Assembly: GCA_963816145.1 (NCBI GenBank)
Contig: CAWFJP010000004.1
Location: 32,001-96,000 of the forward strand
Source of the DNA: an uncultured delta proteobacterium
Lineage (GTDB): Bacteria; Desulfobacterota; Binatia; UBA9968
Reading direction: 5' to 3'
Length of the DNA: 64,000 nucleotides
The number at the start of each line of letters is the position of its first letter. Positions within the stretch are counted from its first letter, which is position 1. The translations under genes and the position numbers were made by a program. Positions 41,732 through 57,586 of the stretch are shown here, one piece after another. Below the pieces are notes generated by a model, which was given only the letters and a program-made list of their open reading frames with translations, was not told the origin of the DNA and did not search any database.

Positions 41732-41771
41732 CTGGAAGACCTCCGGAGTTTAGTTTTTGCTTCTCCATCGG

Positions 41772-41800
41772 TTAGACGGCCCAAACGACGGTCGGTTTAC
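41772..41800 (-). promoter_or_regulatory. ECF-type promoter (probable autoregulation)
   Basis: Minus strand GTAAAC-16 nt-CGTCTAA, matching the AAC/CGT ECF pattern, about 40 nt before the first operon gene. Confidence 0.65.
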
Positions 41801-42048
41801 CGGCCCGTTGAGAAAATCCAGCGGTGAATTATTCAGCGAAAATTCGCTTACTTAGGATCCCATGCAGGACCATATTAGAACTCCGATGAGGGGCTTACGA
41901 GGGCTGCTTGACGTAGCCGCGGGCAAAACCGGCATTGACCCGCCAGCGCCAAGATGCGAAAGGCAGGCGGAATCTTGGGCACAGAGCTGAATCTTGAAAC
42001 TTGTAGTCGGGTCCAGAGTGACGCAGAGTGCGGATCGGACTGTTCAAG

Positions 42049-42077
42049 TTGACAAGCCATCCGGCTTCGACTAGCTT
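42049..42077 (+). promoter_or_regulatory. sigma70 promoter, leaderless geometry, for RGPP leader 1
   Basis: TTGACA-17-TAGCTT, ATG begins 7 nt after the -10; no SD. Confidence 0.75.
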
Positions 42078-42083
42078 CAAACC

Positions 42084-42380
42084 ATGTCAGTTTTTGGAGC
42101 TCGAACGGCAAACGCTTTCGGCCGCGCCGCTTGCGCCGTCACTTTGCTGTTCTTGTTCTTCCTGCCGCTGCATGTTCATTTTTCGCTGTCGCCGCAGTTG
42201 AGCAACCAATGCAGTTGCTTGCAGGGCGCGCGCGCGCAGTTCGTCGTCGCCGACAAAGCTCCGACGGTTGTGCCGGTCCCGCAATTTGCGGTTCTGCTCG
42301 AACCGCAGGTTTGCGCTTGGAGTTCTACCGCATCGCATTGCCAGTATGTCCGTGGCCCGCCTCTCTCAGTAGCCGTTTAG
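42084..42380 (+). CDS. HxH/CxC-RGPP leader peptide 1 (DUF2946/CruR-like putative arrest peptide), 98 aa
   Basis: FFLPLHVH..QCSCLQGARAQ..VRGPP; paralogous to 42918 and 51382. Confidence 0.8.
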   Translation: MSVFGARTANAFGRAACAVTLLFLFFLPLHVHFSLSPQLSNQCSCLQGARAQFVVADKAPTVVPVPQFAVLLEPQVCAWSSTASHCQYVRGPPLSVAV

Positions 42381-42467
42381 TTCGACAATTTCAGCGATAC
42401 TAGTGTGTTCTCGGTGGCGTGTGCGCAAGCCGAGGCGAGTTGTTATCTATCGAGGGAGGGGCTTGTC

Positions 42468-42737
42468 ATGAACTTTTCTGTTGTTCGGACACCGCTTGTC
42501 GTGGTGTCTGCGGCTTTTACGTTTCTGTTGTTTCTATCGGAGCGAGGTTGGGGGCAAAGTACCGAGCTTGAATCGCTGCGCGCGCTCGTCAAGGGCATGG
42601 AACAGCAGCTGCAACAGGCTTTGCAGCGCATCGATCAGCTGGAAAAAGAAAAAGGGTCGACGTCAGTAAGGGTCGAGCAAGTCGAAAAATCAATTCAGGC
42701 GGTGCAAAGCGCGCCGACGGCGCTCAATCCAGCAATC
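42468..42737 (+). pseudogene. Truncated 5' copy of the OM beta-barrel gene at 51787
   Basis: QSTELESLRA..ALQRIDQLEKEK..VRVEQVEKS.QAVQSAPTALNP matches 51787..53052; similarity stops after NPAI and the frame runs on through unrelated sequence to 42902. Confidence 0.85.
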
Positions 42738-42881
42738 ACACCGATCCAACCGCTTGTCCCGGAGCTATGTCAACGAAACTCTTCTTATTTTACCGCATTA
42801 ACAAGTATTCACCGATGGAGGCCTGAGACAAAAAGCACTCCGGTCGAGGCATCCTCTCAGCTACGCGCGGACTCGTTGAAT

Positions 42882-42910
42882 TTGACAAGTCTTAATTCCT
42901 AGGCTAACAA
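42882..42910 (+). promoter_or_regulatory. sigma70 promoter, leaderless geometry, for RGPP leader 2
   Basis: TTGACA-17-TAACAA, ATG 42918 begins 8 nt after; no SD. Confidence 0.6.
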
Positions 42911-42917
42911 GTCGGCT

Positions 42918-43214
42918 ATGGATCTCGCGCAGCTCTCGTTTCAAATAAAGCATAGACAGCGCTGCGTCGGCGTCTTATTGCTGCTAACCGTCTTTTTCCT
43001 GCTGTTTCATTTTCACCCCGCCACAGCGTCAACCGCACAGATTAATGGCGAATGTACCTGCCTGCATGGTACCCGGACCCAAATCGGAATTGCCCCGGTC
43101 ATGGTCCAGTTACCACTGCCCGTGCTGTTAGTTAGGTATTATTCATTCGAACCTCGGTTTGTGTCATTAAATACTGTTCGTTTCCGATCCATTCGCGGTC
43201 CGCCGGTTTTTTAG
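42918..43214 (+). CDS. HxH/CxC-RGPP leader peptide 2, 98 aa
   Basis: FFLLFHFH..ECTCLHGTRTQ..IRGPP. Confidence 0.8.
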   Translation: MDLAQLSFQIKHRQRCVGVLLLLTVFFLLFHFHPATASTAQINGECTCLHGTRTQIGIAPVMVQLPLPVLLVRYYSFEPRFVSLNTVRFRSIRGPPVF

Positions 43215-43333
43215 TCTCTCCGTCACCGTTTATTTTTCAGCTGTTTCTTGAAGATAGGAGCCACCTCGACCGTCCTCGGTCGCCCGCGGCCCGTTCTCCA
43301 TCCATTGGCCCTTAGCCGATTGGAGGAATATTC

Positions 43334-43819
43334 ATGAATCAAAATGTCTCTGCCGTGGCGCCCCGCTCGTGGATCGATGCCCTCGGCAGCACGTTTTCAA
43401 TTGCCTGCGCCATGCAGTGTTCGGTTTTTCCGCTGCTCATCGGCGTGTTGCCGCTGTTAGGTTTGGGTTTTCTCTTAGGCGACGGCGTCGAGAAAGTCTT
43501 TCTGGGAACCTCAGTCGTGCTCGGCGTCAGCAGCTTCACTTGGGGATTTCGCTACCACCAACGTTTTTACGTCTTTGTTTTTTTGGTTTCGGCGTTAGCC
43601 TTGATCGGCGTCGGACGCTTTTGGGTTGACGACCGATACGAGACTCCAATCGTCGTCGCCGGAACGCTGGTTTTGGCCGCAGGCCATTTCCTCAATCGGC
43701 GACTATGCCGTCTTTGCGCCGAGTGCGACCGCCATGGAAGCGCGTCCGGCTCCCATGTCGCAAGCCATATGAGCACTGTCTCCGTTGCCAACGAAAGGAA
43801 CAACGATCATGAAGTCTAA
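43334..43819 (+). CDS. MerC-domain membrane protein
   Basis: DALG..SIACAMQC..P, four TM helices, GH.LNRRLC..C; SD GGAGG. Confidence 0.75.
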   Translation: MNQNVSAVAPRSWIDALGSTFSIACAMQCSVFPLLIGVLPLLGLGFLLGDGVEKVFLGTSVVLGVSSFTWGFRYHQRFYVFVFLVSALALIGVGRFWVDDRYETPIVVAGTLVLAAGHFLNRRLCRLCAECDRHGSASGSHVASHMSTVSVANERNNDHEV

Positions 43820-44312
43820 GTTGATATTAGCTTTACTTTGTATCGGCCTGATCTCCCTGGGTTCACCCGCGGTGCATGTCTGCCGGATTATTCCCGGCTG
43901 GAGTGCGATTACCGTTGCTGGCGCTGCCAATGCTGCGGAAAAGATTCCGTCGCTTACCTGGGATAATCTCCGCAGGCTCAACCCGCAGTCGGGCAAAATG
44001 CCGGCGGACTTGAAGAAGCACGATGGTAACGTTGTGCGAGTTCCAGGTTTTATCATCCCGCTCGAAGACAATGACCAGGAAGTTTCAGAGTTTCTCCTCG
44101 TGCCCTACCCGTTGGCGTGCATTCATGTGCCGGCTCCGCCGCCCAATCAAATTGTCCATGTGAAAATGGAGAAGGGGAAGAAGGTTCCTTTCGATTTTTA
44201 CGCGCCGGTTTGGGCGCAAGGACGGCTCAAGATTCAACACGAGCAAAACATGTACACCGACACGTCGTACTTCATGAGCGGTCTCTCGATAGAACCGTAC
44301 CGAGAACGATAG
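43809..44312 (+). CDS. DUF3299 family protein (ZrgD-like)
   Basis: VRVPGFIIPLE, EFLLVPY..ACIHVPAPPPNQIVHV. Confidence 0.88.
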   Translation: MKSKLILALLCIGLISLGSPAVHVCRIIPGWSAITVAGAANAAEKIPSLTWDNLRRLNPQSGKMPADLKKHDGNVVRVPGFIIPLEDNDQEVSEFLLVPYPLACIHVPAPPPNQIVHVKMEKGKKVPFDFYAPVWAQGRLKIQHEQNMYTDTSYFMSGLSIEPYRER

Positions 44313-44321
44313 GAGTGAGCC

Positions 44322-44891
44322 ATGTTCTATAAGACATTGTTAATTTCGGCACTCGGCATCTTTGCGCTGGGCGTTAATAAAGGAACCGCAGCTGAACAGC
44401 GCCATGCCGAAGCTCATGTGCACGGCATGGCGGAAATCAACATCGTAGTCGAAGGCAAGAGAGTTGTTGTGGAATTCCACACGCCCTCGGAAGGTCTAAT
44501 GGGTTTTGAGCATGAAGCCAAGACTGACGCAGAAAAGAAAAAACGTGACGCGGCAATGAAAATCGTCAACCAGCGGTCTAACGAACTGATCGTTTTCGAC
44601 AAACGAAGCGCTTGCAAATCGCGTAGTGCTACAGCTCGGATCGCGCGCGGTGAGGACCACGATACTAAAGACAAAACGCACGCGGCGGAAAATCAAAAGA
44701 TCAGCGGCGAGCACAGCGAACTCCAAGCCGTGTACCAATTTGAGTGTGATCGGTCGCCGCTAGGGACCAAAGTGAGTTTTGGCGTCTCGAAGCTGTTTCC
44801 TGACATTCACGAGATCAAAGTACAGATCTTGACCGACACCAAGCAAACCGGAGTAACGATCAAGAACGACAAAGGGAACGTCGAGCTTTAA
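44322..44891 (+). CDS. zrgA: DUF2796 / ZrgA-like periplasmic zinc-binding protein
   Basis: Signal peptide, AHVHG, GFEH, HSE...Y.F.C. Confidence 0.82.
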   Translation: MFYKTLLISALGIFALGVNKGTAAEQRHAEAHVHGMAEINIVVEGKRVVVEFHTPSEGLMGFEHEAKTDAEKKKRDAAMKIVNQRSNELIVFDKRSACKSRSATARIARGEDHDTKDKTHAAENQKISGEHSELQAVYQFECDRSPLGTKVSFGVSKLFPDIHEIKVQILTDTKQTGVTIKNDKGNVEL

Positions 44892-44897
44892 CCGGCT

Positions 44898-45575
44898 ATG
44901 GATTACGCCGTTGACATCGAGCAATTGATTTTTTCCTACCGTGGATCGAAGGCCGTGCTGCGTATTCCCGCTCTTACGATCGCCAAGGGTGAAAAAATTT
45001 TCCTCCATGGACCGAGCGGCAGCGGCAAAACCACGCTGCTCGGAATTCTCGCCGGTGTTCTCAGGGCGACCGAAGGACAGGTGACTATCTTGGGGCAAGA
45101 TCTCGCTCGAATGTCGGGACCCCGCCGCGATGCCCTTCGCGGTTCGCACATCGGTTACATCTTTCAGATGTTCAATCTAATTCCTTATCTCAATGTGCTG
45201 GAAAACATCATCCTGCCCTGCCGCATCAGCCCGGAACGCCAACGACGCTTGAACGGCCGATCGCAACACGATGAAGCCAAGAAATTAGCGGACCGATTGG
45301 GGATCGGGCCGATTGTAAGCGACAACGTCATCGATCTGAGCGTCGGCCAGCAGCAACGGGTGGCGGCGGCGCGCGCCTTGATGGGCGCTCCTGAGCTGAT
45401 CATCGCCGATGAACCGACATCGTCGTTGGACGAAGATCATCGCGAGGGATTTCTTCAACTGTTGTTCGATCAGTGCCGCGAGATCGGCTCGACGTTGATT
45501 TTTGTCAGCCACGATAGACGGATGATGCCGCTCTTCGATCGCGCCGTGTCGTTAGCAGAGATCAATAAGGTTTAA
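44898..45575 (+). CDS. ABC transporter ATP-binding protein (ZrgB-like)
   Basis: GPSGSGKT, LSVGQQQRVAAARAL, ADEPTSSLD, VSHD. Confidence 0.92.
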   Translation: MDYAVDIEQLIFSYRGSKAVLRIPALTIAKGEKIFLHGPSGSGKTTLLGILAGVLRATEGQVTILGQDLARMSGPRRDALRGSHIGYIFQMFNLIPYLNVLENIILPCRISPERQRRLNGRSQHDEAKKLADRLGIGPIVSDNVIDLSVGQQQRVAAARALMGAPELIIADEPTSSLDEDHREGFLQLLFDQCREIGSTLIFVSHDRRMMPLFDRAVSLAEINKV

Positions 45576-45576
45576 C

Positions 45577-46842
45577 ATGTTTCTGCTCTCGCTCGCATAC
45601 CGCTCATTGGCCAATCGCAAACTGACGACGATCGTTACATTGTTGTCGCTTGGACTGAGCGTCAGCCTTTGGATTGGGATCGAACAGATTCGTAGCGGCG
45701 CGCGCGAAAGTTTTTCCAACACTATCAGCCAAACCGATCTGATCGTCGGCGCGCGCGGCAGTCCGATCCAGTTGCTGCTCTACACGGTATTTCACATCGG
45801 TACGCCGACGGCGAACGTCACTTACAAGTCATACAAGGAAATCAAAGATCACAAAGCGGTGCTGTGGACGATTCCCATCTCTCTGGGCGACAGCCACCGC
45901 GGATACCGCGTAGTTGGCACAAACGAAGATTTTTACCAGCATTACCGTTACCGGCAAGACCAGCAATTGGAGTTTGGCCAAGGGCGCGCGCCGGCTGGGA
46001 TCTTTGATGTGGCGCTCGGCAGCGATGTGGCGCAGGCGTTGCGCTACGGTCTGGGAGCAAAGATCGTTGTCACTCACGGCATCACCAACAGCCGCGGCAT
46101 CATGGATCACGACGATAAGCCGTTTACAGTTGTCGGTGTCTTGCGGCCCACGCGCACCCCGATCGACCGTTCTCTTTATGTGACACTCGAAGGTATCGAA
46201 GCGATGCACATCGACTGGAAACAGGGCGCGCCGCCGATCAAAGGACAAGAAACCCCGGCGGAGAAAATCAAAAAGGAAGACATTAAAATTGACCAGATCA
46301 CGGCGTTTTTTCTGCGCACGAAGTCACGGGTGCAAACCCTCGCGCTGCAACGGGAGATCACCAATTTCCCTGACGAGCCGCTGACGGCGGTGGTTCCCGG
46401 TGTCGCTCTGAGCGAGCTTTGGACCGGTATCAGTTACGGCGAGCAAGTGCTCCAAGTGGTGGCGATCTTTGTCGTGATCGTCGGACTCCTCGGCATGTTG
46501 ATGTCGCTCTACACATCTTTGAACGAGCGGCGGCGGGAAATTGCCATTCTCAGGGCCTTGGGAGTTGGGCCGGTGAAAGTAATTTCCCTCTTGATATTCG
46601 AGTCGGGGCTGCTGACCTTAATCGGTACGGTTTTGGGGGTGGCTATAGTTTATGGTTCTGTTGCATTGTTGCAGCCGACGATTGAGCAGCAATTCGGCCT
46701 GCACATCCCGCTTAGGCCGCTCACGGGCACGCAGTATAGTTACCTGGTTTATGTAGTCTTTGGCGGAATTGCCGTCGGTCTCATTCCAGCCTGGAAAGCT
46801 TACCGAAATGCCCTCTCAGATGGCTTAAGCGTGCGAATTTAG
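45577..46842 (+). CDS. FtsX/MacB-type ABC permease (ZrgC-like)
   Basis: TDLIVGARG..QLLLY, PISLGDSHRGYRVVGT, ERRREIAILRALG. Confidence 0.9.
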   Translation: MFLLSLAYRSLANRKLTTIVTLLSLGLSVSLWIGIEQIRSGARESFSNTISQTDLIVGARGSPIQLLLYTVFHIGTPTANVTYKSYKEIKDHKAVLWTIPISLGDSHRGYRVVGTNEDFYQHYRYRQDQQLEFGQGRAPAGIFDVALGSDVAQALRYGLGAKIVVTHGITNSRGIMDHDDKPFTVVGVLRPTRTPIDRSLYVTLEGIEAMHIDWKQGAPPIKGQETPAEKIKKEDIKIDQITAFFLRTKSRVQTLALQREITNFPDEPLTAVVPGVALSELWTGISYGEQVLQVVAIFVVIVGLLGMLMSLYTSLNERRREIAILRALGVGPVKVISLLIFESGLLTLIGTVLGVAIVYGSVALLQPTIEQQFGLHIPLRPLTGTQYSYLVYVVFGGIAVGLIPAWKAYRNALSDGLSVRI

Positions 46843-46945
46843 ATTTGCAGCGATGGGGATAGTGAAAAAAACTTCCTTGATGACGCTGCCGGTGCGGTAT
46901 CGTCGGAGGGTATACGAGTCTTGCTTATGATTTTGGAGATTTGAA

Positions 46946-47437
46946 ATGGAAAAACAAGCCGTCATTTTATTTCTGCTGTTAAGTTTGTTGCTCATCTCGA
47001 AAGGAATGAATTTTGCCGACGAATCCATTCCTGTTCGGCAACCGATTCGCGATAAGTTGGCGAACGCAGCGCGCCATTTTCTCGGGATGCCATATCGCTG
47101 GGGAGGGATGTCGGAGCGTCGCGGCATGGATTGCTCGGGGTTGGTCAAAGCGCTATTTGCCACATTACACATTGATTTGCCCAGGACTTCCCGCGAACAA
47201 TATCACGCCGGGGAAAATGTTGCTGTCGAAAACCTGCAAGCCGGCGACCTGCTCTTCTTTTCATCTGACGGCGTGACGCCGAATCACGTCGGTCTTTATA
47301 TCGGCGACAATCGTTTTGTTCACGCCGAGAAAAAAGCCGGACACGTCATCATCACGGAACTGAATCAGCCTTGGTACGTTAAGCATTTCCTGGGAGCACG
47401 CCGTATTGTGGAATCGGAAGAAGGGCGACGCACATGA
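46946..47437 (+). CDS. NlpC/P60 peptidoglycan hydrolase
   Basis: GMPYRWGG, DCSG, LPRTS, GDLLFF, HVGLY..FVHA. Confidence 0.93.
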   Translation: MEKQAVILFLLLSLLLISKGMNFADESIPVRQPIRDKLANAARHFLGMPYRWGGMSERRGMDCSGLVKALFATLHIDLPRTSREQYHAGENVAVENLQAGDLLFFSSDGVTPNHVGLYIGDNRFVHAEKKAGHVIITELNQPWYVKHFLGARRIVESEEGRRT

Positions 47438-47570
47438 AACAAATGGATCGGTTTTAGTGTTACGTGATCTATGTTTCAAGCCTGACGATAATACAGCATA
47501 GACAGGAATCGCGGCCTGGGAGAAGTTTAGGGAAAGTCAAAAAAGTAAACCCTCTGGAGACGCGCTGCGA

Positions 47571-47870
47571 GTGGCATTCGGATTTAGATTAATTACTTTC
47601 GCTGGGCTTTGCTTAATTTGGTCGGTGCACATCGCTTGGGCGGCCGGCTCTTGTCATATCCACCCGCTGGGAGTCGATATCAAGGAAGCCGAATCGAGCG
47701 CATTCGAGTGGTACAGCTCTCTTGAGCAGTGCGAGGTGGCGAATAAAAAGTTTTTCGGCGGAAGAGGAATGTGTCATTGTTTTCCTGACGGATTTATCAA
47801 CGGAGAAGGCGATGACTGGCGGTCTCGGCTGAGAGATCACGGCACGCTGCAAGAGCCGCCGTCGGAATGA
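47571..47870 (+). CDS. Small secreted Cys/His-containing hypothetical protein
   Basis: Signal peptide AWA, CHIHP, C, CHC; SD GGAG. Confidence 0.5.
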   Translation: MAFGFRLITFAGLCLIWSVHIAWAAGSCHIHPLGVDIKEAESSAFEWYSSLEQCEVANKKFFGGRGMCHCFPDGFINGEGDDWRSRLRDHGTLQEPPSE

Positions 47871-47938
47871 TCATTGATGTCACAAACGCACGGTCGTCTA
47901 CCCTGGGACCGGATGCTGACGGAACGCCTCGATGGAAA

Positions 47939-48556
47939 ATGAAGCACCCATCTAGCATGACCTTCATGCTTGGAATCGGATTGATCGCTGCATTATTCGG
48001 TGCGGTCGCTTGCACGCCAGCAATTGTCACTTCTCTACCGCAGACCGTTCGTCGAATCGCCGTTCTTCCACCCTTCCAACGTGGCGCCGTCAATGCGCGC
48101 ACTGACGCAGACAACGGTCTACCTGTTTTACAAAACATGACTGTGGGAGATGTTCTCGCCCATCAAGCACGCATCAGACTTGCGGAAAAAGGATTCGAGG
48201 TTCTCAGTCCTGGTGCAGTGAAAGTGGCAACCAAGGATCGTGTGCCCACTAGCCCAGAGATGGCGGCGCAGATTCTGCGCGAGGCCAACCTTGACGCGGT
48301 GGCGCTGTACATCGAAATACGGCGTTGGGACCCAACGCCAAGCGAGAGGGGAATGAAAGCCGACGGTGTAATCGTCGCGTTAGACGTGACGATGGTCGAT
48401 CCGAGGACAGGCGCGATATTGTGGCAGCTACACCGTCCATCCCGGCCGGTTCCGCTTTACGGAGTCGTATTGACCGGGCAAGCTAATGTCTTCGTGGCCG
48501 AGACGATCATGCGGGAGGCGCTTGCATTGGTTAAGTTGTCGCAGCCGAATGGTTGA
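47939..48556 (+). CDS. Lipoprotein (DUF799/CsgG-like alpha/beta fold suspected)
   Basis: Lipobox AVA-C, RIAVLPP, L.EKGF, EIRRW, MVDP.TG.ILW. Confidence 0.6.
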   Translation: MKHPSSMTFMLGIGLIAALFGAVACTPAIVTSLPQTVRRIAVLPPFQRGAVNARTDADNGLPVLQNMTVGDVLAHQARIRLAEKGFEVLSPGAVKVATKDRVPTSPEMAAQILREANLDAVALYIEIRRWDPTPSERGMKADGVIVALDVTMVDPRTGAILWQLHRPSRPVPLYGVVLTGQANVFVAETIMREALALVKLSQPNG

Positions 48557-48620
48557 ACATACGTCCATTAGCCGCTAATGGACCATGCTTTATGAACTCA
48601 ACACAGGTTATCCATGGGAC

Positions 48621-51186
48621 TCAATGGCCGGTGTTTTCTTCGGAGCCTGAAAGTTTATTAAGGCGCCGCTGGATCTCGTCGAATTGCTGGCGCAGCGCTT
48701 CGTACTGCTGGCGGAGCATTGCCAAATCCCGTTGATCCTGGGATTTCTCCTTCGTCTTGGAATCGCTATCTCCAGCCAATACAACTTCAGGCACCAACTC
48801 ACGCACGACAGTTTCGTAGCGACGAGCAGCGCCATCATCGCGCCCAGCGGCTGCGACGGCATAGTGATAGAGCGCTGTCCCGGCCCGACGAGCAGCGGTA
48901 ATTTCCGGCGCTGTCGGCCAAAGCGGATCGGCAGCGCCTGCCAAGCGCGTTTCAAGAATATCATAAAACGAAGCTAGACTTTCTCCGGTGAACCAATCCG
49001 CGTTGCCAAATGTGGCGGCGACACGGGTCAAGCGCGGAGCCAGGAATTCAATCAGCGGGCGATCGTCGGTATTAAGCGGAGCGCTGCCGAACAAATCAGC
49101 TACAGCTCTGAGATTTCCGGCGTAGAGCATCGACAGACCTCGCGGAGTCGAAAGAACCGGATCCTTGCTCCATTCGGGCAGTCGCAACGCGCGCTCACGG
49201 ATGCGCGCGAGGTCAAGCCGTCGCGATGTTAGCTGGCCGACCAAACCAACCACTGGAAGCTCCGCATAAAAATCATCGCGCCAGAGACTCACTTGCGGAA
49301 ATACAGCAAGAAACGTTCGCGCGATAATATCAAATTCCCCGCGGGTAAGTTGATAGAGCGGCAGCCACTGACAAAAGATTCCGTCCGGCGCGAGACGACG
49401 GGCCGCGGTTTCATACATCTCTCGCGCGTAAAGGTTTCCAGTCCCCGGATTCCAGGGTACGAACAGGTCGGAGACAATCACGTCGAAACTGTCTCGGCTG
49501 GTCGCGAGATAGCGGCGACCGTCGTCGAGCACGAGGCGTACATCGGAGCGCTCCAATAATTTTGCGTTCCAAGACGAGAAGTGCGCGCGCGCCGCGTTCG
49601 CGACTTCCGGCACGAGTTCAACAACCGTTGTATCTTCTACGCCAAGGGCAGGTGCTGCGCTTGCGCTGATGCCGGTGGCAAGGCCGATGAAGGCAACACG
49701 GCGCGGATTGGGATGGAGCAGCAACGGGAGCAGCCCCTGGCGCCGCTCGCCAACCGCTGCCGCGCTGCGCCCCAGTACGTAGTAGTTATCGAGCCGGAGT
49801 TGAAGATCTCCGCCCGCCTCCGTCACAGCGACAACGCCGCTCGCTCCCTCGATCATCTCGCGTAACGTTTCGCCTTTCGAACCGAGATGTACGAGCGGCG
49901 CTCGCAGTGGATTGGCAATCAACATGGCGAGGAGAACAACGTAAGCGAGCGGTCTAAACCGGCTTTGCGACGGCGCAAGTAGATCAGCGAGCAGAACATA
50001 CACCACCGCCGCGACGAGCAAGCTCCCGCGAACGCCGAGCGCCGGGATTATTAAGAAGCCCATGGCAACCGCGCCGAGGACTCCACCGAAAAGGTTTGCC
50101 GCCGAAAGATCTCCCAGCGGACGAGCTACACTTATCCGCTCGCCCCAGGCGGCCCAGAGGGCGGGCAAAACCATTCCGGACGCAATCGCCGCGGGGCCAA
50201 CTGTTATTGCGGTAAGTGCTATGATCCGTAAAACATATTCCAGCAACCCAGCGCGCATGCCCAAATAGGTGAGCCCATCCGTCCAGTACACGAAGAGCCA
50301 CAGCCCGCCGATGGTTGCACCCGCTGCAACCACCAACCCCATCGCTGCGACGGTATTCGGTGCAGCGCGACGCAGTAGAAACGCCGCCAGTGCCGCGCCC
50401 GCCGCGATCGCTAAAAGAAAAACAAGGATCACCGTCGTGAAGGAATAGACTGAGTTATGTAAAACTTGGGCAAAGAGATGTGTCCAAAGCACTTCGAGCC
50501 CGAGGCCCAAGGCGCCCGTACCGGCGGCGACGAGCCGCAAACGCGCGCGTTGCGGCGGCGGAAACATGGCTTTCCTTGACCGATTCGGTTATGGATGCTT
50601 TCTCACGGCGATCGCCGATCGCGATTGCCAGGAGTCCGGCCAGCAAACTGGCGCCGGCGGCGATGACGTAGCTCGCCCGCACACCGACGAAGATGGGAAG
50701 GCCAAAGCCCGCGGCTGCCGCGCCGAGCACAGCGCCTGCGGTGTTGATGGCGTAAAGGAGACCGCCGCGTTGTCCCACAGTCTCGACGCTGGCAAGAGCT
50801 TGGGCAAGAGTCGGAAGCGTTGCACCTAGACAGAATGTTGTCGGTAGAATCGCCAACGCGACGGCAGCAACGCGTCCCGCGAGTCCAATGTTGGAAAGCC
50901 AAACCTGAGCATTATCGAGGGCCAGTACCCGGAAAATAGTGAGCGACCACAGTGCGCCTCCTGCGGCGCCAAATTCGAGATATCCGTACAATCGCACTGG
51001 TCGTGACGAAGCCCGTCGCGCATAGACTGAGCCAAGGCCCAAGCCGGCAAAATAGCAGGCGAGGACGGTCGCGGCGGTGAAAGCGGTTGTGCCAAGGACG
51101 AGCCCGGCCGAGCGCATCCATAGCATTTCCAAGGCCAGAGCGGCTGCGCCTGAAAGAGCGAAACAGAGCCAAAGCATAAACCGCAT
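48621..51186 (-). CDS. Fused MFS-like/spermidine synthase family membrane protein, frameshifted at ~50550
   Basis: Two repeats of SG..LxLExLW..LG/ LYA.NT.G.V.G TM blocks, then IGLATGIS, VELVPEV, DDGRRYL, FDVIVSD, QWLPLYQ. Confidence 0.85.
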
Positions 51187-51345
51187 GCTACGTTGATTTA
51201 TGTTGTACCACAGCAAATGTAAACTAGATGACTCATCAACGGCCAAAAAATATGTTTCTGTTCGACTCCTCGCTGCCTGTTGTGTCATCTTTCGGAAAGA
51301 TTGATCTCAATAGCAAGTCGGTTACGGCTGCAGCGCAATATTCTG

Positions 51346-51374
51346 TTGACTTCGCGAAGCACATTCGTTAGGTT
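51346..51374 (+). promoter_or_regulatory. sigma70 promoter, leaderless geometry, for RGPP leader 3
   Basis: TTGACT-17-TAGGTT, GTG 51382 begins 8 nt after. Confidence 0.7.
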
Positions 51375-51381
51375 AAACGGC

Positions 51382-51678
51382 GTGGTTCTTTCAGGAATGA
51401 GAAGAGGATTTTCTATTCGCCGTCTCGTTACTGCGACGACTTTAGTATTTGTTTTCTTTCTACCATTTCATTTTCATCTTTCCGTTTCCGCGCAAATCAG
51501 TAAAGAGTGCACTTGCCTCCAAGGTGTTCGAACTCAGCTGGGTGCGATCGCGAATGTTACGGCGGTCGTCCAGCAGCTTTGGATTGCACGCGTTGCCAAT
51601 CAAGCGGTTTCTATTTGGGCCGAAGACAGATTGGAACAGCAGCATGTCCGAGGGCCACCCTTCCGAGCCTCCCTGTAG
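51382..51678 (+). CDS. HxH/CxC-RGPP leader peptide 3, 98 aa from GTG (alternative ATG 51397)
   Basis: FFLPFHFH..ECTCLQGVRTQ..VRGPP. Confidence 0.8.
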   Translation: MVLSGMRRGFSIRRLVTATTLVFVFFLPFHFHLSVSAQISKECTCLQGVRTQLGAIANVTAVVQQLWIARVANQAVSIWAEDRLEQQHVRGPPFRASL

Positions 51679-51786
51679 TTCTTTGTTCGAAATCCGAATC
51701 GTAAAATAACTACGTCCGTTTCCCTTCTATTCTCACCTCTGAATCATAGGAGGGTGACGGAATGGTATTGGAGGGGGGGTAGCAAA

Positions 51787-53052
51787 ATGTTTCTATTATC
51801 AGCGAGGCTGCAACGGGTCGCGGCATTCGTTCTGGTGAGTCTATTGATTGGGTTTCCATCGGCTGCCCTGGCGCAAAGTTCGGAGTTGGAAGCGCTGCGC
51901 GCCACGGTCAAAAACATGGAGCAGCAAATGCAAAAGGCGTTGCAGCGTATCGATCAATTGGAAAAGGAAAAAACTTCGACAACCGTGCGCGTCGAGCAAG
52001 TCGAAAAATCAGTTCAGGCGGTGCAGAGCGCGCCCACAGCGCTAAACCCCTCGATGGGGCTGGTGCTTGATGCGAATGTCCAAAATCTTGGCAAAGCGGG
52101 CGGCAATTTTGATTTCCGCAGCGCCGAGCTGGGAATCGCGGCTTCGGTGGACCCATTCGCCAGAATGTACAGTTTCTTCAACGGCTCAAAGGATGGTGTG
52201 GAGGTCGATGAAGCGGCAGCGATCACTTCTTCGCTGCCATGGAACTTGACGGCCAAGGGCGGCCGATTCCTCGCCGACTTCGGGCGCTTGCCTAAAGTTC
52301 ACGAGCATGAGCTGCCGTTTGTGACTCAGCCGCTATCGATACAACGAATGGTCGGCGGTGAAACCCAGGCGGACGGCGTAGAAATGAATTATCTGTTCCC
52401 GACGCCGTTTTATCTGCGGGCCACGTTGGGAGGAATGAACAAGATCGGCGAGGATAACGATCAGGTAAGCAATTCCAAGCCGCGCTCGTGGAGCCGATTC
52501 ACCTATCTCGGCAGGCTCAACACCTATTTTGATCTAACTGATAATCAAAGCGTTGAAGTTGGCACGAGCATGGCCTATACGCCAGACCTGCGTCTGGCAG
52601 GTGATCCCAGCGGCGGCTATCGCGCGCTTAACGGCATCGATGTGACTTATCGCTACCAGCCCCTCAACAGCGCCGTTTACCAGGGTGTGACTTGGGGTAG
52701 TGAATGGTATACCAACAGCGAGCGGATACCATTTGATACCGACGCGAGTAGTTCTGCCAAACGACAACGGTCATACGGCGGCTATAGTTACGTTGAGGCG
52801 AAGCTGAACAAGAACTGGTCGACCGGATTCCAAGTCGACTACGCTCCCATGGTCGAGACCCCGGCACAGCGGACCATGAGTTACACACCTTTCGTGACCT
52901 GGAATCTCAGCGAATTTAATCGGCTGCGCTTTCAGTACAGTTACTTGAACAACAATTTTCGCGGGGCGGACAAAGCTGAAAACGGCAATCAATTTTTCCT
53001 CCAATGGACGACGGTCATCGGTGCTCATACCCATGGTTTTCTCGGTCGCTAA
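51787..53052 (+). CDS. Outer-membrane beta-barrel protein of the zinc-regulated receptor/porin type
   Basis: Signal peptide, coiled coil, ASVDPF, KGGRF..DFG..HEHELPF, SEFNRLR.QY, C-terminal IGAHTHGF; upstream of a Zn/Mn ABC system. Confidence 0.8.
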   Translation: MFLLSARLQRVAAFVLVSLLIGFPSAALAQSSELEALRATVKNMEQQMQKALQRIDQLEKEKTSTTVRVEQVEKSVQAVQSAPTALNPSMGLVLDANVQNLGKAGGNFDFRSAELGIAASVDPFARMYSFFNGSKDGVEVDEAAAITSSLPWNLTAKGGRFLADFGRLPKVHEHELPFVTQPLSIQRMVGGETQADGVEMNYLFPTPFYLRATLGGMNKIGEDNDQVSNSKPRSWSRFTYLGRLNTYFDLTDNQSVEVGTSMAYTPDLRLAGDPSGGYRALNGIDVTYRYQPLNSAVYQGVTWGSEWYTNSERIPFDTDASSSAKRQRSYGGYSYVEAKLNKNWSTGFQVDYAPMVETPAQRTMSYTPFVTWNLSEFNRLRFQYSYLNNNFRGADKAENGNQFFLQWTTVIGAHTHGFLGR

Positions 53053-53079
53053 GGATTTTCCCAAGGGAGTCTACTTATT

Positions 53080-54009
53080 ATGATTAAAAAATTAACGCGA
53101 GGAATAAACTGGAAAACATTTCTCTTCGCTTTTACATTTCTTTCCTTACAAACGGGTTTGGTATTCGCACAGCAGATTCGTGTAGTGGCGACCTTTCCTG
53201 ATCTCGCCGACATAACCCGGCAGATCGGCAAAGAGCTGGTCACTGTGGATAGTCTGGCCACGGGAATCGAAGACCCTCACGGGGTTCCCATGAAACCGAG
53301 CTTTGTGCCTCGATTAAACAGAGCTGACGTAATAGTCCTCACGGGTTTGGATGACGAGCATTCATGGCTTCCCGCGTTACTGGAAGTGGCAGCCAATTCA
53401 AAAATTCTTCTCGGCCGTCCGGGCTACATAGATTGTTCTGTTGGAGTACCGGTGCTTGAAGCGCCGACTCTCGTGGACCGCTCGGAGGGAGATATGCACC
53501 CGAAGGGGAATCCGCACTTCATGTTAGATCCTGTCAAAGCGAAAATCGCAGCGCGGAACATCGCTTCTGGCCTTTCCCGGAATTTTCCTCAACATCAGCA
53601 GGTTTTTGACAAAAATCTCAAAGCCTATGTTGCGGAACTGGATAGTTGGATTGCACGCTGGGAAAAGCTGGCGATGCCTCTCCGGGGTATCAAATATGTA
53701 GAATATCATCCCCAATGGATATATTTCGCCGATCGATTCGGTATGAAACGGATTGGGAGTGTTGAACTGAAGCCAGGGATAGAACCAACGCCTAATCATA
53801 TCGTGGAATTGGTGCAGACAATCAAACAAGAGAAACCTCAGTTACTCCTTTACGGTGCTCAGAACCCGCGACTTCCGCAACAAATCTCAGCTGAGACAGG
53901 TATCAAGGTTCTTCGTCTTTACAGTAACGCGGGAGCGCAACCTGAGACGGATAGCTATATAAAATGGATCGATTATACTGTGCGTACTCTAGTTCAGGCG
54001 GTTAGTTAG
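53080..54009 (+). CDS. znuA: Zn/Mn ABC transporter substrate-binding protein (cluster A-I)
   Basis: EDPH, GDMHPKGNPH, YH..W.YF..RFG, ELKPGIEPT..H. Confidence 0.85.
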   Translation: MIKKLTRGINWKTFLFAFTFLSLQTGLVFAQQIRVVATFPDLADITRQIGKELVTVDSLATGIEDPHGVPMKPSFVPRLNRADVIVLTGLDDEHSWLPALLEVAANSKILLGRPGYIDCSVGVPVLEAPTLVDRSEGDMHPKGNPHFMLDPVKAKIAARNIASGLSRNFPQHQQVFDKNLKAYVAELDSWIARWEKLAMPLRGIKYVEYHPQWIYFADRFGMKRIGSVELKPGIEPTPNHIVELVQTIKQEKPQLLLYGAQNPRLPQQISAETGIKVLRLYSNAGAQPETDSYIKWIDYTVRTLVQAVS

Positions 54010-54011
54010 AC

Positions 54012-54746
54012 TTGATAAAACAGGATCGAGATGTCGACGCAATCGCAGGCGCCAGAGGTGAAGAGTCGGAAAAAAGCTCTTCGCCTCTGGTTTCTCTTGA
54101 AAATGTAAACCTGGGCTATGATTCCACCCCGGTGGTTCGAGACGTCAATCTCGCTATCTTTCCGGGGAGCCTCATCGGTCTGGCCGGGCCCAACGGTTCA
54201 GGCAAGACCACGCTGTTCAGAACAATTCTAGGGTTACTGCCGCCTGTTAGCGGAACTCTTTCCCGCAGTTGTCCCTTGTCAAACTTTGGCTACGTGCCGC
54301 AAAGCGCAGCGCTCGATCCGCAATTTCCGCTGAGCGCGTCAGAGGTCGTGGAGATGGGCGCCTACGGCCGTGTCCGCCCATATCAGTTTTTACCGGCGAG
54401 TGAAAAGGCGCGAGTCAAAGAAGTTTTGCAACAAATTGGCTTGCCGCAGCTCGCGGCGAGATCGTTTTTTTCTTTGTCCGGTGGCCAAAAACAACGGATG
54501 CTGATTGCGCGCGCGTTGATGGTAAATCCAAAGATCATGATTTTAGACGAGCCGCTTTCTGGAGTGGACGAAGAGTCCCGGCGCAGCATCGCCGATCTAT
54601 TAACAAAACTCACCCGCGAAAAGGGATTGGCGGTGTTTTTTTCCAGCCACGACCTTGAGATGGTGCAACGCGTGGCCGATGGTATCGTGCGCATCGATAA
54701 AGGACAGATTTGGTTGGACGAAAGAAAGGCACGACTTCATCCATGA
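54012..54746 (+). CDS. znuC: Metal ABC transporter ATP-binding protein
   Basis: GPNGSGKT, GYVPQ, LSGGQKQR, LDEP, SHD. Confidence 0.88.
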   Translation: MIKQDRDVDAIAGARGEESEKSSSPLVSLENVNLGYDSTPVVRDVNLAIFPGSLIGLAGPNGSGKTTLFRTILGLLPPVSGTLSRSCPLSNFGYVPQSAALDPQFPLSASEVVEMGAYGRVRPYQFLPASEKARVKEVLQQIGLPQLAARSFFSLSGGQKQRMLIARALMVNPKIMILDEPLSGVDEESRRSIADLLTKLTREKGLAVFFSSHDLEMVQRVADGIVRIDKGQIWLDERKARLHP

Positions 54747-56188
54747 GCGCTCTATTTGAAATCATAAGCCCCTCATATTTGCTCTTTCCAGCACTCGTGG
54801 GCACGATGATCATGGGCTTGGTTTGTCCACTGGTGGGATCGTTCCTGGTTCTTAGACGCACGGTGTTTCTTGGATTAACCCTTCCGGAAATTGCTGCCGC
54901 TGGAGTCGCTTTTACGTTCTGGATGCAGCAGGCGGGCCTCTTGCCACAGATGGGACAAAGCGAAAGAGGTGTTGCGATGGTGGGGTCGCTCGTCTTTACG
55001 TTCCTCGGCATGGGGCTGCTCGGTTATCTGGAGCAGCGCGGCAAAGGCCCAGCGGAAGGCCGCCTCGCCGCGGCATACGCATTTGCCGGCGCTCTAACGA
55101 TCTTGTTCATGGTTTTTAATCCCGCGGGTCAGATAGAAGTTCTCAATCTACTGAAGGGTGAAGTGATCGCACTATCCAAAGGAGAACTGCGACTTGTAGT
55201 TGCAGTGTTTGGCTTAGTTTTATTGGCGATGGTTTTCTTCCGCCGTGAGTTTCTTCTGACTTCTTTCGATCGGGACTTAGCATTCTTGCTCAAAGGCCGC
55301 CAAGTGATTTGGGACATATTGCTTTATCTTCTTGCCGGCTTAATCATCGCCGTCGGGGTGATCATCGCGGGACCGCTGCTGATTTTCGGATTCCTGGTCT
55401 TGCCGGCGCTGGCAGCTAAACCTTTGGTCCACCGGATGAGTTCTTTCCTTATGCTTTCTTCAGCGTTGGGTATGATGATGGCATTTTTCGGTTTTTACAG
55501 CTCCGTCAGGTTGGATCTTCCTTTAGGACCAACAGACGTGGCTCTGGGATGCTGCCTGATCTTTCTGGCGTACGGAATCCGGCGGATTTCAACCAGAGGT
55601 TTTGCGGCAACGATCCTGACATGCGTTGCTATTTCCGTTTCCGCTTGCAGCACGCCAGTCCCTCCACCACCCATTCCTGAGGCTAAAGCGATTCATGCAG
55701 ATCTAGTCTGGTTGGCCAAGGTCAAAAATAGCACTGCGTTGCCGCTGATATTGCCGGAGTCCAATCCGCTGCGATCGTTGGCCGAAATGGCCGGCAAGCT
55801 TGCCCCCGAGACACGCGCCAACGTGATGGATTTGCTGCGTCAAAATCTCCAAACTGAACTCGCGCAACAAGGCTTCCAGATTTTTCTACCTGAGGCCAAG
55901 GATGTGCGCTTTCCGCCGTTTGCCGCCGACGCCGTTAGCGCCGCCCGGGTGGCGCGCGAGGGGAATCTTTCGGGGTTGATTTTCGTCTGTGAGATTTGGC
56001 GCTGGGAAGGCGAAACGCAAAAGTTCGTGCGCGCTCTGGTCGATTTCAAACTCGTCCGCATCGATGACGGCACCGTCGTCTGGGAGCGCCGCGTGCAACG
56101 CGCGGTTCCCACCCCGAGCGCGACCAATCTCGGTCAGGCATCGACCGATGCCGTAAAGGCAATTATCCACGACTTATTCGCGGGATGA
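54743..56188 (+). CDS. znuB: Metal ABC permease (ABC-3) fused to a C-terminal lipoprotein-like domain
   Basis: N-terminal about 290 aa ABC-3 permease (G.FLVLRR, SFDRDLA, LDLPLGP); C-terminal VSA-C and a domain resembling 47939..48556. Confidence 0.8.
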   Translation: MSALFEIISPSYLLFPALVGTMIMGLVCPLVGSFLVLRRTVFLGLTLPEIAAAGVAFTFWMQQAGLLPQMGQSERGVAMVGSLVFTFLGMGLLGYLEQRGKGPAEGRLAAAYAFAGALTILFMVFNPAGQIEVLNLLKGEVIALSKGELRLVVAVFGLVLLAMVFFRREFLLTSFDRDLAFLLKGRQVIWDILLYLLAGLIIAVGVIIAGPLLIFGFLVLPALAAKPLVHRMSSFLMLSSALGMMMAFFGFYSSVRLDLPLGPTDVALGCCLIFLAYGIRRISTRGFAATILTCVAISVSACSTPVPPPPIPEAKAIHADLVWLAKVKNSTALPLILPESNPLRSLAEMAGKLAPETRANVMDLLRQNLQTELAQQGFQIFLPEAKDVRFPPFAADAVSAARVAREGNLSGLIFVCEIWRWEGETQKFVRALVDFKLVRIDDGTVVWERRVQRAVPTPSATNLGQASTDAVKAIIHDLFAG

Positions 56189-56950
56189 AAAGAGGATGTC
56201 ACGTCTGCTACATGGATTTATAGCCTCGCCAGCGTTGTTTTGGTGAGTCTGCTGTCGCTTGTCGGTATCGCTTTTATCTCACTGAGCGAATTGCGTTTGA
56301 AGCAGCTGATATTCGCCATGGTTAGCCTCGCTGTCGGCAGTTTGTTCGGCGACGCATTCATCCATCTGTTGCCCAAGTCATTTGAGCAGAGGCCGGAGAA
56401 GATGCAAGTGTCGCTCTCAATTCTTGCCGGAATCTTTACATTTTTTATTTTGGAAAAATTTCTTCTTTGGCGTCACAAGCACGTGCTGGAATCCGAGCAT
56501 GCGATCCACCCCGTCGGGTACATGAATCTACTGGCAGACGGCGTGCACAACTTTATTGACGGCGCGATTATCGGAGCGTCTTATCTGGTCAGCTATCAGA
56601 TTGGCGTGGCGACTACCCTGGCGGTGATTTTTCACGAGATCCCGCATGAGCTCGGAAACTTCTTCGTTTTGCTCTATGCCGGATTCACCAAGACGAAAGC
56701 GCTCTTGTTCAACTTTATATCGGCATTGTTCGCGATTTTGGGAACTGTAATTTCGTTGTCCGTCGGTTCTCGGGTGCAACAATTTGCTTCGCTGATGCTG
56801 CCGATCGCCGCCGGCGGTTTTATTTACATCGCCGGTTCCGATCTAGTTCCCGAGCTGAATAAAGAGGTGCAACTATCCAAATCGATCATGCAGATGATCG
56901 CTATAGGAACCGGCGTTGGATTAATGCTGTTATTGACGCTGCTGGAATGA
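56185..56950 (+). CDS. ZIP family metal transporter (5' end probably frameshifted in an A-run at ~56188)
   Basis: GDAFIHLLP, DGVHNFIDG, HEIPHELG, GFIYIAGSDLVPEL; in-frame upstream TWIYSLASV lacks a start unless one A is removed after ATG 56185. Confidence 0.9.
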
Positions 56951-56962
56951 GGTTATCGCACT

Positions 56963-57586
56963 ATGGCTCACCGTCGTCCTCCGCTTATGCGCGCATTGCA
57001 GCTCAATACCGCGGTTCTGGTCGTAGAGATCGCCGCCGGAATTGGCTCTAACAGTTTTAGCCTCATCATGGATGGCATCCATAATCTTTCCGACGAAGTC
57101 GCGCTTGTGCTGCTGGTGCTAGCCTATAGTCTTAGAGCGGGTCTTTCAGGCAAGCTGTTGCGCTACGCAAACCTGTTCAACTCAGTCGGACTTTTAGCGA
57201 TCTCGGTCTTCCTGACCTTGCGTGTTGTTGAGCGCCTGTCTTACCCCGTCGAAGTGGTCGGCGTTGTCCCGATCATAGCCGGTTTGATCGGAGCAGCAGC
57301 CAACTGGGGCGTCGCTCGCGTGTTGCGCGAAGCCGCCAAAGAGGACGTGGCCATTCGTCTAGCTTACGTCCACAATCTCGGCGACACTTTGGTTTCGCTC
57401 ATTCCGGTAGCAGCTGGCATTTTCATTTTTGCCTCGGGAAATTTTCTATTTGACTCGTTGTTCGCCTTGCTGATTGCCGCCGTTGTGGTGGTTACGACGC
57501 TGCAAGCCGTCGTGGGGTCCCACCAAGAGCTGCTGTGGCCGGAGAATGTTTCGTGCGGGCATGCGGAAGTTGATCTAAAGATTTGA
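56963..57586 (+). CDS. Cation diffusion facilitator (CDF) lacking the cytoplasmic C-terminal domain
   Basis: S.SL..DG.HNLSD (TM2 HxxxD), HNLGD (TM5); only 207 aa. Confidence 0.8.
   Translation: MAHRRPPLMRALQLNTAVLVVEIAAGIGSNSFSLIMDGIHNLSDEVALVLLVLAYSLRAGLSGKLLRYANLFNSVGLLAISVFLTLRVVERLSYPVEVVGVVPIIAGLIGAAANWGVARVLREAAKEDVAIRLAYVHNLGDTLVSLIPVAAGIFIFASGNFLFDSLFALLIAAVVVVTTLQAVVGSHQELLWPENVSCGHAEVDLKI

Follow-up and report, generated by a model that had tools for sequence, protein, structure and literature searches.

Three short open reading frames (ORFs), c1, c2 and c3, in a 64,000-nucleotide stretch of the genome of an uncultured delta proteobacterium of the Binatia (contig CAWFJP010000004.1, positions 32,001 to 96,000; hereafter the window) are probably cis-acting leaders of the CruR/CutF kind, that is, upstream ORFs (uORFs) whose translation would arrest at a C-terminal R-G-P-P motif until zinc releases the arrest and shuts off import. 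Each leader carries an HxH motif, a CxC motif and RGPP, and the distance from CxC to RGPP is kept almost without exception among relatives with divergent linkers. The initial annotation of this DNA took that distance for a length ruler; the ruler is real in the family of CxC-44-R[A/G]PP leaders, and the family's sequences support the interpretation placed upon it.

Three leaders with one spacing

The leaders and their motifs (lengths in amino acids, aa) are as follows.

42084..42380, + strand: c1 leader ORF, 98 aa from ATG, with HVH at 42171-42179 and CSC at 42210-42218
42351-42362, + strand: RGPP of c1, after a 44-aa linker; tail LSVAV
42918..43214, + strand: c2 leader ORF, 98 aa from ATG, with HFH at 43008-43016 and CTC at 43053-43061
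43194-43205, + strand: RGPP of c2, after a 44-aa linker; tail VF
51382..51678, + strand: c3 leader ORF, 98 aa from GTG, with HFH at 51469-51477 and CTC at 51508-51516
51649-51660, + strand: RGPP of c3, after a 44-aa linker; tail FRASL

At the start of all three peptides, as read from the sequence, 2-4 basic residues precede a run of about 15 hydrophobic residues without charge; this segment resembles an export signal and ends in FFLP(L/F)HxH, and 10-12 residues further on stands CxC-L-x-G-x-R-x-Q. The CxC motif occupies residues 43-45 in c1, 46-48 in c2 and 43-45 in c3 (numbered from GTG 51382), and RGPP occupies residues 90-93, 93-96 and 90-93, respectively, leaving exactly 44 residues from second Cys to Arg in all three copies. 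This is the count that had been made by hand in the initial annotation, and motif placement bears it out. The accompanying statement that each ORF is 98 aa long holds for c1 and c2 from their ATG codons, but for c3 only from GTG 51382, since the mechanical ORF list starts that frame at TTG 51280 (132 aa); an ATG at 51397 would give 93 aa. We favor the GTG because its layout, TTGACT-17-TAGGTT-7-GTG, matches those of c1, c2 and 21 related loci. Past LxGxRxQ the linkers have little in common, as had also been claimed, with 2/37 (c1-c2), 7/37 (c1-c3) and 2/37 (c2-c3) residues identical in ungapped comparison.

No copies other than these three occur in the 7.8-Mb genome (31 contigs). Public relatives of c1, c2 and c3 are identical to them at 68, 50 and 57 of 98 residues, respectively, whereas the three are identical to one another at just 26-36; they are thus old lineages, each closer to a relative elsewhere than to its neighbors. 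Database entry P0016 (95 aa) shares 56 of its first 62 aligned residues with c1 and then diverges, and looks like a frameshifted close relative or one with a sequencing error. A 188-nucleotide (nt) metatranscriptome contig is identical to 51526-51713, which shows presence in an RNA library only, without start, end or strand, and no sequencing run contained half of the sampled words.

The spacing is kept across the family

A profile built from the three window copies and four close homologues was searched against 1.84 billion protein cluster representatives, and recovered 136 at E up to 1e-3. HxH, CxC and xxPP are all present in 124 of these; the remaining 12, which were left out, run into a contig end, carry a frameshift, continue into the following gene as a fusion or are missing one of the motifs. 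The spacing from CxC to R[x]PP is 44 in 119 of the 124, 45 in four and 42 in one, a histogram that could hardly be narrower, and all 124 have CxC, not CXXC. The search does not seem to hide other spacer lengths, judging from P0124 and P0125, for which the HMMER alignment covers the N-terminal part only and yet the spacing, by our own count, is 44. A second sample of 29 genome loci, retrieved by two N-terminal peptide patterns only and overlapping in part with the first, has a spacing of 44 in 28 loci and 45 in one.

The linker itself is poorly conserved. Mean pairwise identity over its 37 variable positions is 15.4%, where composition alone would give 8%, in comparison to 68% for the block formed by the end of the transmembrane segment and HxH. 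Column entropies are mostly 2.5-3.9 bits, the exception being a Pro at +19 after the second Cys that is kept in 89 of 119 proteins, and the composition is rich in Ala, Val, Ser and Pro. Invariant among 127 aligned members are H30, H32, C43, C45, P92 and P93, with L27, P28, G48 and R90 at least 90% conserved. The arrest motif is RAPP in 98 of 125 proteins, RGPP in 22, RSPP in three, LGPP in one and RDPP in one. The spacer between HxH and CxC is 10, 11 or 12 residues long (in 32, 77 and 15 proteins, respectively) with no compensation in the 44, and 2-8 residues follow PP. Because both of these lengths vary as the distance from CxC to the arrest motif stays constant, the ruler is anchored on CxC and not on HxH.

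Promoter-like sites and predicted leaderless starts

A promoter-like site lies immediately upstream of each leader.

42049..42077, + strand: c1 promoter-like site, TTGACA 42049-42054, 17 nt, TAGCTT 42072-42077, 6 nt to ATG
42882..42910, + strand: c2 promoter-like site, TTGACA 42882-42887, 17 nt, TAACAA 42905-42910, 7 nt to ATG
51346..51374, + strand: c3 promoter-like site, TTGACT 51346-51351, 17 nt, TAGGTT 51369-51374, 7 nt to GTG

When the three window copies are taken together with the 29 genome loci, the arrangement TTGACA-17-TAnnn[T/A]-5 to 8 nt-start codon is found in the leader's frame in 24/32 loci compared with 6/2235 control windows, and the distance from TTGAC to the first His codon is constant, by eye, in 31/32. 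A promoter abutting the start codon in this way implies a leaderless mRNA and sets the stretch ahead of HxH to 28-30 residues. Leaders measured from the promoter-defined start are 97-101 aa long, and exactly 98 in 12 of the 24.

Relationship to CruR, CutF and other arrest peptides

RAPP and RGPP are robust arrest motifs that are refractory to EF-P and equivalent in arrest strength; proteomes avoid them, but small secreted or membrane proteins whose genes lie upstream of regulated genes, among them sec, yidC, dsbA and thioredoxin genes, show an enrichment of them near the C-terminus (PMC12992588). In the CruR toeprint the P site holds the third motif residue and the A site the fourth codon (PMC12992588). 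CruR (Bp2923 of Bordetella pertussis) has a CXXC motif, 45 residues and RAPP, and this spacing is kept within 1-2 residues in more than 2000 DUF2946 proteins; spacer changes of one or two residues are tolerated, an insertion of five strongly lowered the copper response, and the response did not require the signal peptide (PMC9426467). Copper relieves the CruR arrest and turns the uptake receptor off, with Rho-dependent termination as the output (PMC9426467). CutF works in the other direction, as periplasmic copper prolongs its stalling and induces a detoxifying oxidase (PMC9973294).

No Pfam or NCBIfam model matches c1, c2 or c3. The DUF2946 model (PF11162) does not match them even at E up to 10, leaving its gathering score of 23.7 bits unreached, and matches none of the 127 aligned members at E 0.1 or better, with one at E 0.11. 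A PDB search with the leader profile gave no structure at E below 0.05, the weak matches being transmembrane helices. A possible bridge to DUF2946 is offered by weak matches in Desulfobacterota (L035, L041 and L042): these peptides of 87-94 aa begin with a hydrophobic segment and carry a His cluster and CxxC, with 45 residues before RAPP. In this CxxC sister group the spacing is 45 in 25 of the 30 relatives that could be scored, 44 in two, 46 in one and 48 in one, and one scored 43 from a CSC overlapping its CSIC, from which it is 45; three of the 33 were left unscored on account of long tails or a degenerate motif. Alignment of the CxC family with four CxxC-45-RAPP peptides in hhalign gives 89% probability and E 2.3e-6 over 74 columns, from FFLPLHFH to RAPP, whereas with a single CxxC peptide RAPP alone is aligned. 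The same four peptides, used in place of a bona fide DUF2946 alignment, score 23.4 bits, 17.1 bits and twice no match against the DUF2946 cut-off of 23.7. We therefore read the window peptides as a distant, Pfam-unassigned branch of what would be a CruR/CutF superfamily, and not as members of DUF2946 as defined.

The likeness to CruR extends to a small first gene of a metal-uptake operon, set off by a long intergenic region, whose product has a Cys motif, some 45 residues of spacer and, putatively, an export signal at the N-terminus. R-A-P-P lies three residues from the end in CruR, and c1-c3 have RGPP a few residues from theirs; their spacing falls within the 1-2 residues by which 45 may vary. 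For CruR, relief of the arrest by metal with uptake turned off, and the importance of spacer length, have been demonstrated. The window peptides differ in having CxC (CSC, CTC and CTC) with an invariant HxH instead of CXXC, a spacer of 44 that is more strictly kept, RGPP in all three copies and no DUF2946 match. They also differ in a metal context of zinc and not copper, with ZnuABC or Zrg import behind a porin-like protein in place of a TonB receptor, in the leaderless-type promoter, and in a proposed output that includes Shine-Dalgarno unmasking.

CutF of Rhodobacter capsulatus and others is an exported nascent sensor of fewer than 150 aa with a C-terminal proline motif, and CutF-like proteins form many sequence clusters (29) with Cys and/or His motifs (PMC9973294; bioRxiv 10.1101/2025.02.05.636593). 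The window leaders fit this description in length and layout at 98 aa, with PP 2-5 residues from the end and gaps of 87, 119 and 108 nt to the next gene; a stem-loop that occludes the ribosome-binding site in front of the following gene and that the stalled ribosome opens is a further CutF feature. The sign differs, in that copper prolongs CutF stalling in favor of a detoxifying oxidase and the uptake context of the window calls for the opposite. ApdA, ApdP, ApcA and a Streptomyces lividans set share the core arrest motif and the placement in small secreted or membrane proteins upstream of regulated genes, a pattern into which c1-c3 also fall, but these monitor Sec or YidC or have unassigned inputs (PMC12992588, PMC10951233, PMC7897499). 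An artificial counterpart is the His2Cys2 zinc finger of ADR1a placed on the SecM nascent chain, which releases arrest only with Zn2+ and over a narrow range of tethers, optimal at 24-26 residues and at baseline by about 30 (PMC4571824). That finger folds inside the tunnel, whereas in the window the tether is 47 residues and the site would lie outside the tunnel or in the translocon.

The words 'zinc' and 'ZnuA' are absent from the main texts of the CruR, CutF and RAPP/RGPP papers (PMC9426467, PMC9973294, PMC12992588), and in one paper a DUF2946 gene is listed, but not itself studied, at the head of the czr efflux operon of Caulobacter (PMC4176598). Our literature search found no paper tying an arrest peptide or uORF to znuABC, although the supplementary cluster lists of the CruR and CutF papers lay outside that search and might hold the family. 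The length ruler itself is not new, having been published for CruR and tested there by insertions. What appears to be new is the CxC-44-R[A/G]PP subfamily, with its CxxC-45 sister group, heading zinc-import operons in uncultured lineages; the peptides look like an undescribed, zinc-linked branch of the copper-sensing CruR/CutF leaders. Named records containing the family are metagenome-assembled genomes labelled Deltaproteobacteria, Binatia, Syntrophobacteraceae, Acidiferrales, Chloroflexota, Eisenbacteria and Udaeobacter. Matches in a sample of 300 other Desulfobacterota genomes were confined to two, both weak, so the distribution is patchy.

A proposed mechanism

We infer the arrest itself, zinc as its ligand, the direction of the switch, its output route and the side of the membrane (cytoplasm or periplasm) on which metal is sensed from the features described here and from the published systems. 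In the proposed sequence of events the leader would be transcribed from its own promoter as a leaderless mRNA, and its basic and hydrophobic N-terminal segment would target the nascent chain to the membrane. Translation would then stall at R-G-P-P, the P site being occupied by the first Pro and the A site by the codon of the second. An extended chain needs about 30 residues to span the exit tunnel (PMC4571824), and the second Cys is 47 residues from the P-site residue; the invariant CxC should thus stand outside the tunnel at the moment of arrest, with the invariant HxH 10-12 residues further out, and, were the chain to pass through SecYEG, CxC would lie close to that channel's far end. This geometry agrees with the position just outside the tunnel, or in the translocon, that the initial annotation had assigned to the metal motif.

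The arrested ribosome would cover C-rich arrest and tail codons that otherwise pair with the next Shine-Dalgarno sequence and may double as a Rho entry site. Since arrest would keep the ribosome on this anti-Shine-Dalgarno, C-rich segment, the arrested state should correspond to zinc-uptake genes being on; and because the downstream genes import, homeostasis requires that metal release the arrest, which is the sign of CruR and opposite to that of CutF. Zinc, when available, would be bound by HxH and CxC of the tethered chain, and the resulting compaction would pull on the peptide and free the arrest. The ribosome would terminate and leave, the Shine-Dalgarno would be sequestered again and/or Rho would terminate transcription, and import would be off. 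In this scheme the 44-residue linker is a spacer whose length, and not its sequence, would set the tether at which metal binding transmits force to the peptidyl-transferase centre. The ADR1a-SecM precedent, in which zinc compaction frees the arrest with sharp length dependence, would explain why the spacer is kept in length and not in sequence (PMC4571824).

A bolder version, which we put forward tentatively as somewhat less likely than not, is that these are natural nascent-chain zinc sensors operating without a protein regulator. The Sec-engaged peptide would show HxH at the membrane surface, and CxC would emerge exactly at arrest; zinc bridging both sites would pull the chain and release it, so that zinc, in the periplasm or the cytoplasm, directly gates the translation of a Zrg system and of the only ZnuABC in the cell, and perhaps their Rho termination.

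RNA between the leaders and their operons

The three intergenic regions are listed here with the predicted pairing of the downstream Shine-Dalgarno sequence.

42381..42467, + strand: c1 intergenic region; the downstream GAGGGAGG Shine-Dalgarno pairs with RGPP and tail codons, dG -19.3, better than all 60 control windows
43215..43333, + strand: c2 intergenic region; C-rich, G-poor start, with the merC Shine-Dalgarno in a local hairpin that does not involve the leader tail, rank 11 of 63
51679..51786, + strand: c3 intergenic region; the GGAGGGGGGG Shine-Dalgarno pairs with tail codons GCCUCCCUG, enclosing an inner hairpin (CCCUUCU...AGGAGGG), dG -18.5, rank 0 of 60

The codons from the Arg of the arrest motif to the stop are rich in CCUCC-like words. 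Because the position of the anti-Shine-Dalgarno within the tail differs among loci, duplex energies were calculated for each sequence separately, using 30 loci (L018 and L026, with no defined downstream start, were left out). In 22 of the 30, none of about 60 uORF windows of equal length complements the Shine-Dalgarno region as well as the Arg-to-stop segment does, and the mean dG of this segment is -17.0 compared with -9.7 kcal/mol for the control windows. Relative to synonymous recodings, the real tails have a mean z of -1.6, with 27/30 below the median and 11/30 in the top 5%. In minimum-energy folds the pairing of tail and Shine-Dalgarno closes around an inner CCCUCC...GGGAGGG hairpin, and the c3 intergenic fold has a z of -2.29. 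Partition-function calculations leave the Shine-Dalgarno paired in every model, at a mean unpaired probability of 0.04, rising to 0.18 when the footprint of a stalled ribosome is masked; the change is from 0.00 to 0.30 for c1 and from 0.00 to 0.18 for c3.

Rfam gave no match at E up to 1 in 41500-53500, and a terminator scan found no intrinsic-terminator-like site in any of the three intergenic regions. A U-run after the inner hairpin was considered as a terminator and rejected, as by eye it starts several bases after the stem. The c3 spacer also contains a six-codon mini-ORF (ATG...TAG, 51762-51782) that lies behind the inner AGGAGGG and overlaps the true Shine-Dalgarno, with 4 nt between its end and the ATG at 51787; as a candidate element it was dropped, not being seen in L005, the one other locus checked.

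The leaders precede zinc-import genes

The genes behind the three leaders are as follows.

51787-53052, + strand: first gene of the operon behind c3 (span 51787..57586), putative outer-membrane protein with coiled coil and signal peptide, 421 aa, no family match
53080-54009, + strand: ZnuA-type binding protein
54012-54746, + strand: ABC ATPase
54710-56188, + strand: ABC-3 permease
56240-56950, + strand: ZIP transporter
56963-57586, + strand: short CDF protein
43334-43819, + strand: MerC, first gene of the operon behind c2 (span 43334..46842)
43785-44312, + strand: DUF3299/ZrgD-like protein
44322-44891, + strand: ZrgA
44898-45575, + strand: ABC ATPase
45577-46842, + strand: FtsX/MacB-type permease
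42468..42902, + strand: 5' remnant of an outer-membrane-protein gene behind c1, with homology ending near 42735

We read the 421-aa protein behind c3 as a putative outer-membrane protein; a PDB sequence search with it returned nothing at E below 0.05. At the 29 related loci the next gene is a homologue of it in 26, MerC in one, an NlpC/P60 gene followed by the outer-membrane gene in one, and a contig edge in one, and ZnuA, the ABC ATPase and the ABC-3 permease follow wherever about 1.5 kb or more of sequence is present. The CxxC-45-RAPP peptides likewise precede the outer-membrane protein and ZnuA with its ABC partners. The ZnuA behind c3 is the only one in the genome. Where Synechocystis ZnuA has its PH, PH and HP motifs, the window protein has His at all three aligned positions, while the manganese protein PsaA has Glu at the third; we take these positions to be metal ligands and three His to be the mark of zinc-specific binding proteins. 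The stretch behind c1 retains about the first 90 codons of the outer-membrane-protein gene, residues 30-90 being 82% identical to the intact copy behind c3 (79% in DNA; 42551-42730 against 51870-52049), followed by unrelated sequence and then by the c2 promoter. From this arrangement, c1 and the remnant look like a duplicated leader-plus-porin module that was cut short by the c2-MerC-Zrg cassette.

Inspection by eye for a Zur box revealed no shared palindrome between the -35 and -10 elements. The genome contains two Fur-family hits with identical scores (G000 C4:172988-173332 and C25:17897-18241); lying on separate contigs in a genome with 6.7% contamination, they may represent a duplicated or co-binned stretch. 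An NlpC/P60 peptidase gene recurs near the leaders, at 46946-47437 in the window (after the Zrg operon), at 2274-2675 in L012 (after MerC), and about 280 nt after the leader in L026, between the leader and the outer-membrane gene. The ABC-3 permease (54710-56188) and its homologues in L009, L010, L013, L031 and others are about 490 aa long with the ABC-3 domain confined to residues 24-287; the C-terminal 200 residues have no family match in the window, and their counterpart in L020 matches HEAT repeats.

Weighing the interpretation

Several observations weigh against a zinc-released arrest leader acting through its RNA. The leader c1 heads a gene remnant only. It is the gene neighborhood that points to zinc, whereas copper is the metal sensed by those relatives that have been characterised (PMC9426467, PMC9973294). 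In some members an AxA-like site separates HxH from CxC, and signal-peptidase cleavage there, if it occurs, would separate the two halves of the proposed metal site. The -10 hexamers fit TATAAT at just 3/6 positions, and a consensus promoter scan of the window did not report the c1, c2 and c3 promoter sites. As for the RNA, the tails of c1, c2 and c3 are themselves indistinguishable from synonymous recodings (z of -1.0, -0.2 and +0.07), and the loci are related, so that the Wilcoxon p value of the recoding comparison overstates the case. Masking the ribosome footprint raises Shine-Dalgarno accessibility by at least 0.2 in only 10/30 loci and is without effect for c2 and its relative L012, because in these the Shine-Dalgarno sits in a separate hairpin, and RNAalifold found no consensus pairs in 28 leader-to-start regions. 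The model in which tail codons mask the Shine-Dalgarno is thus moderately supported by the predicted pairing.

With respect to the output step alone, it is conceivable, if somewhat unlikely, that Rho-dependent termination operates as in CruR, either instead of Shine-Dalgarno unmasking or together with it. The arrest region and the first 45 nt of the spacer are C-rich and G-poor (34.5% C and 20% G, compared with 28% and 29% for whole loci), the spacers to the next gene are long (73-121 nt across loci), c2 and L012 lack tail-to-Shine-Dalgarno pairing, and CruR provides the precedent. However, the complementarity between tail and Shine-Dalgarno is strong, exceeding both sets of controls in most loci with an outer-membrane-protein gene.

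That the same arrest-leader mechanism responds to copper or another thiophilic metal, as CruR and CutF do, is unlikely. Cys motifs bind Cu(I), MerC-family proteins are associated with mercury, and the known relatives, as noted above, are copper sensors. None of the 29 loci was seen to have PCuAC, YcnI, CopC, a multicopper oxidase or a TonB receptor behind the leader, though, and the genes that follow are instead ZnuA with its three-His pattern, ABC-3, ZIP, CDF and ZrgA; the four ligands presented by the invariant HxH and CxC would also suit tetrahedral zinc.

We consider it quite improbable that the peptides are stable small periplasmic or membrane metal-binding proteins, such as chaperones for the outer-membrane protein or ZnuA, in which length reflects a fold and R[A/G]PP is incidental. 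The first gene of an operon could well encode a structural partner, and the conserved Pro at +19 and an alternating hydrophobicity in part of the linker hint at structure. Such a protein would nevertheless have an Ala/Val/Ser/Pro-rich linker of about 15% identity on average, a near-invariant motif at fixed distance that proteomes otherwise avoid, and tail codons complementary to the next Shine-Dalgarno, and its profile matched no solved structure at E below 0.05. Least credible of all is a role in sensing secretion or oxidative folding, as SecM or ApdP might do it or by way of a CxC disulfide, with translocation force or DsbA and not metal releasing the arrest: the export-like N-terminus and the RAPP/RGPP peptides known upstream of sec, yidC, dsbA and thioredoxin genes would fit, but at none of the loci examined is there a Sec, YidC or Dsb gene downstream, and the invariant His pair would have no role.

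Other features near the leaders

Between the two zinc operons a 99-aa ORF (47571-47870, + strand) has a signal-like N-terminus, SCHIH and MCHCF and no Pfam match, and may encode another small metal-binding protein. Just upstream of c1 on the opposite strand are an ECF sigma factor gene (40657-41322, - strand) and, adjoining it, a gene for a 131-aa secreted protein composed of repeated DR(K/R)E(I/L) units (41336-41731, - strand). A 648-aa membrane protein with a spermidine-synthase-like domain (48621-50567, - strand) overlaps by about 110 nt a 277-aa MFS-like ORF (50455-51288, - strand); the two are in different frames and may be one gene with a frameshift.

Implications

As far as the length ruler alone is concerned, the main outcome is that a published property of CruR is confirmed in a new subfamily. 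The wider reading, that the leaders are zinc-released arrest peptides, would extend the CruR/CutF principle from copper to zinc, and in the bolder version such leaders would be nature's equivalent of the ADR1a-SecM construct engineered as a force sensor. With its anchor on CxC, the near-absolute spacer of 44 residues would be a natural measure of where on the path through ribosome and translocon a metal site must lie for force to be transmitted to the catalytic centre, and a short, well-defined peptide would make it possible to test directly the question raised for CruR, of how metal binding releases arrest. Control of zinc import in bacteria is usually ascribed to the repressor Zur. To this a zinc-reading arrest leader would add a second, post-transcriptional mode, and if the bolder version holds, the leaders would take over Zur's usual task in these uncultured lineages.

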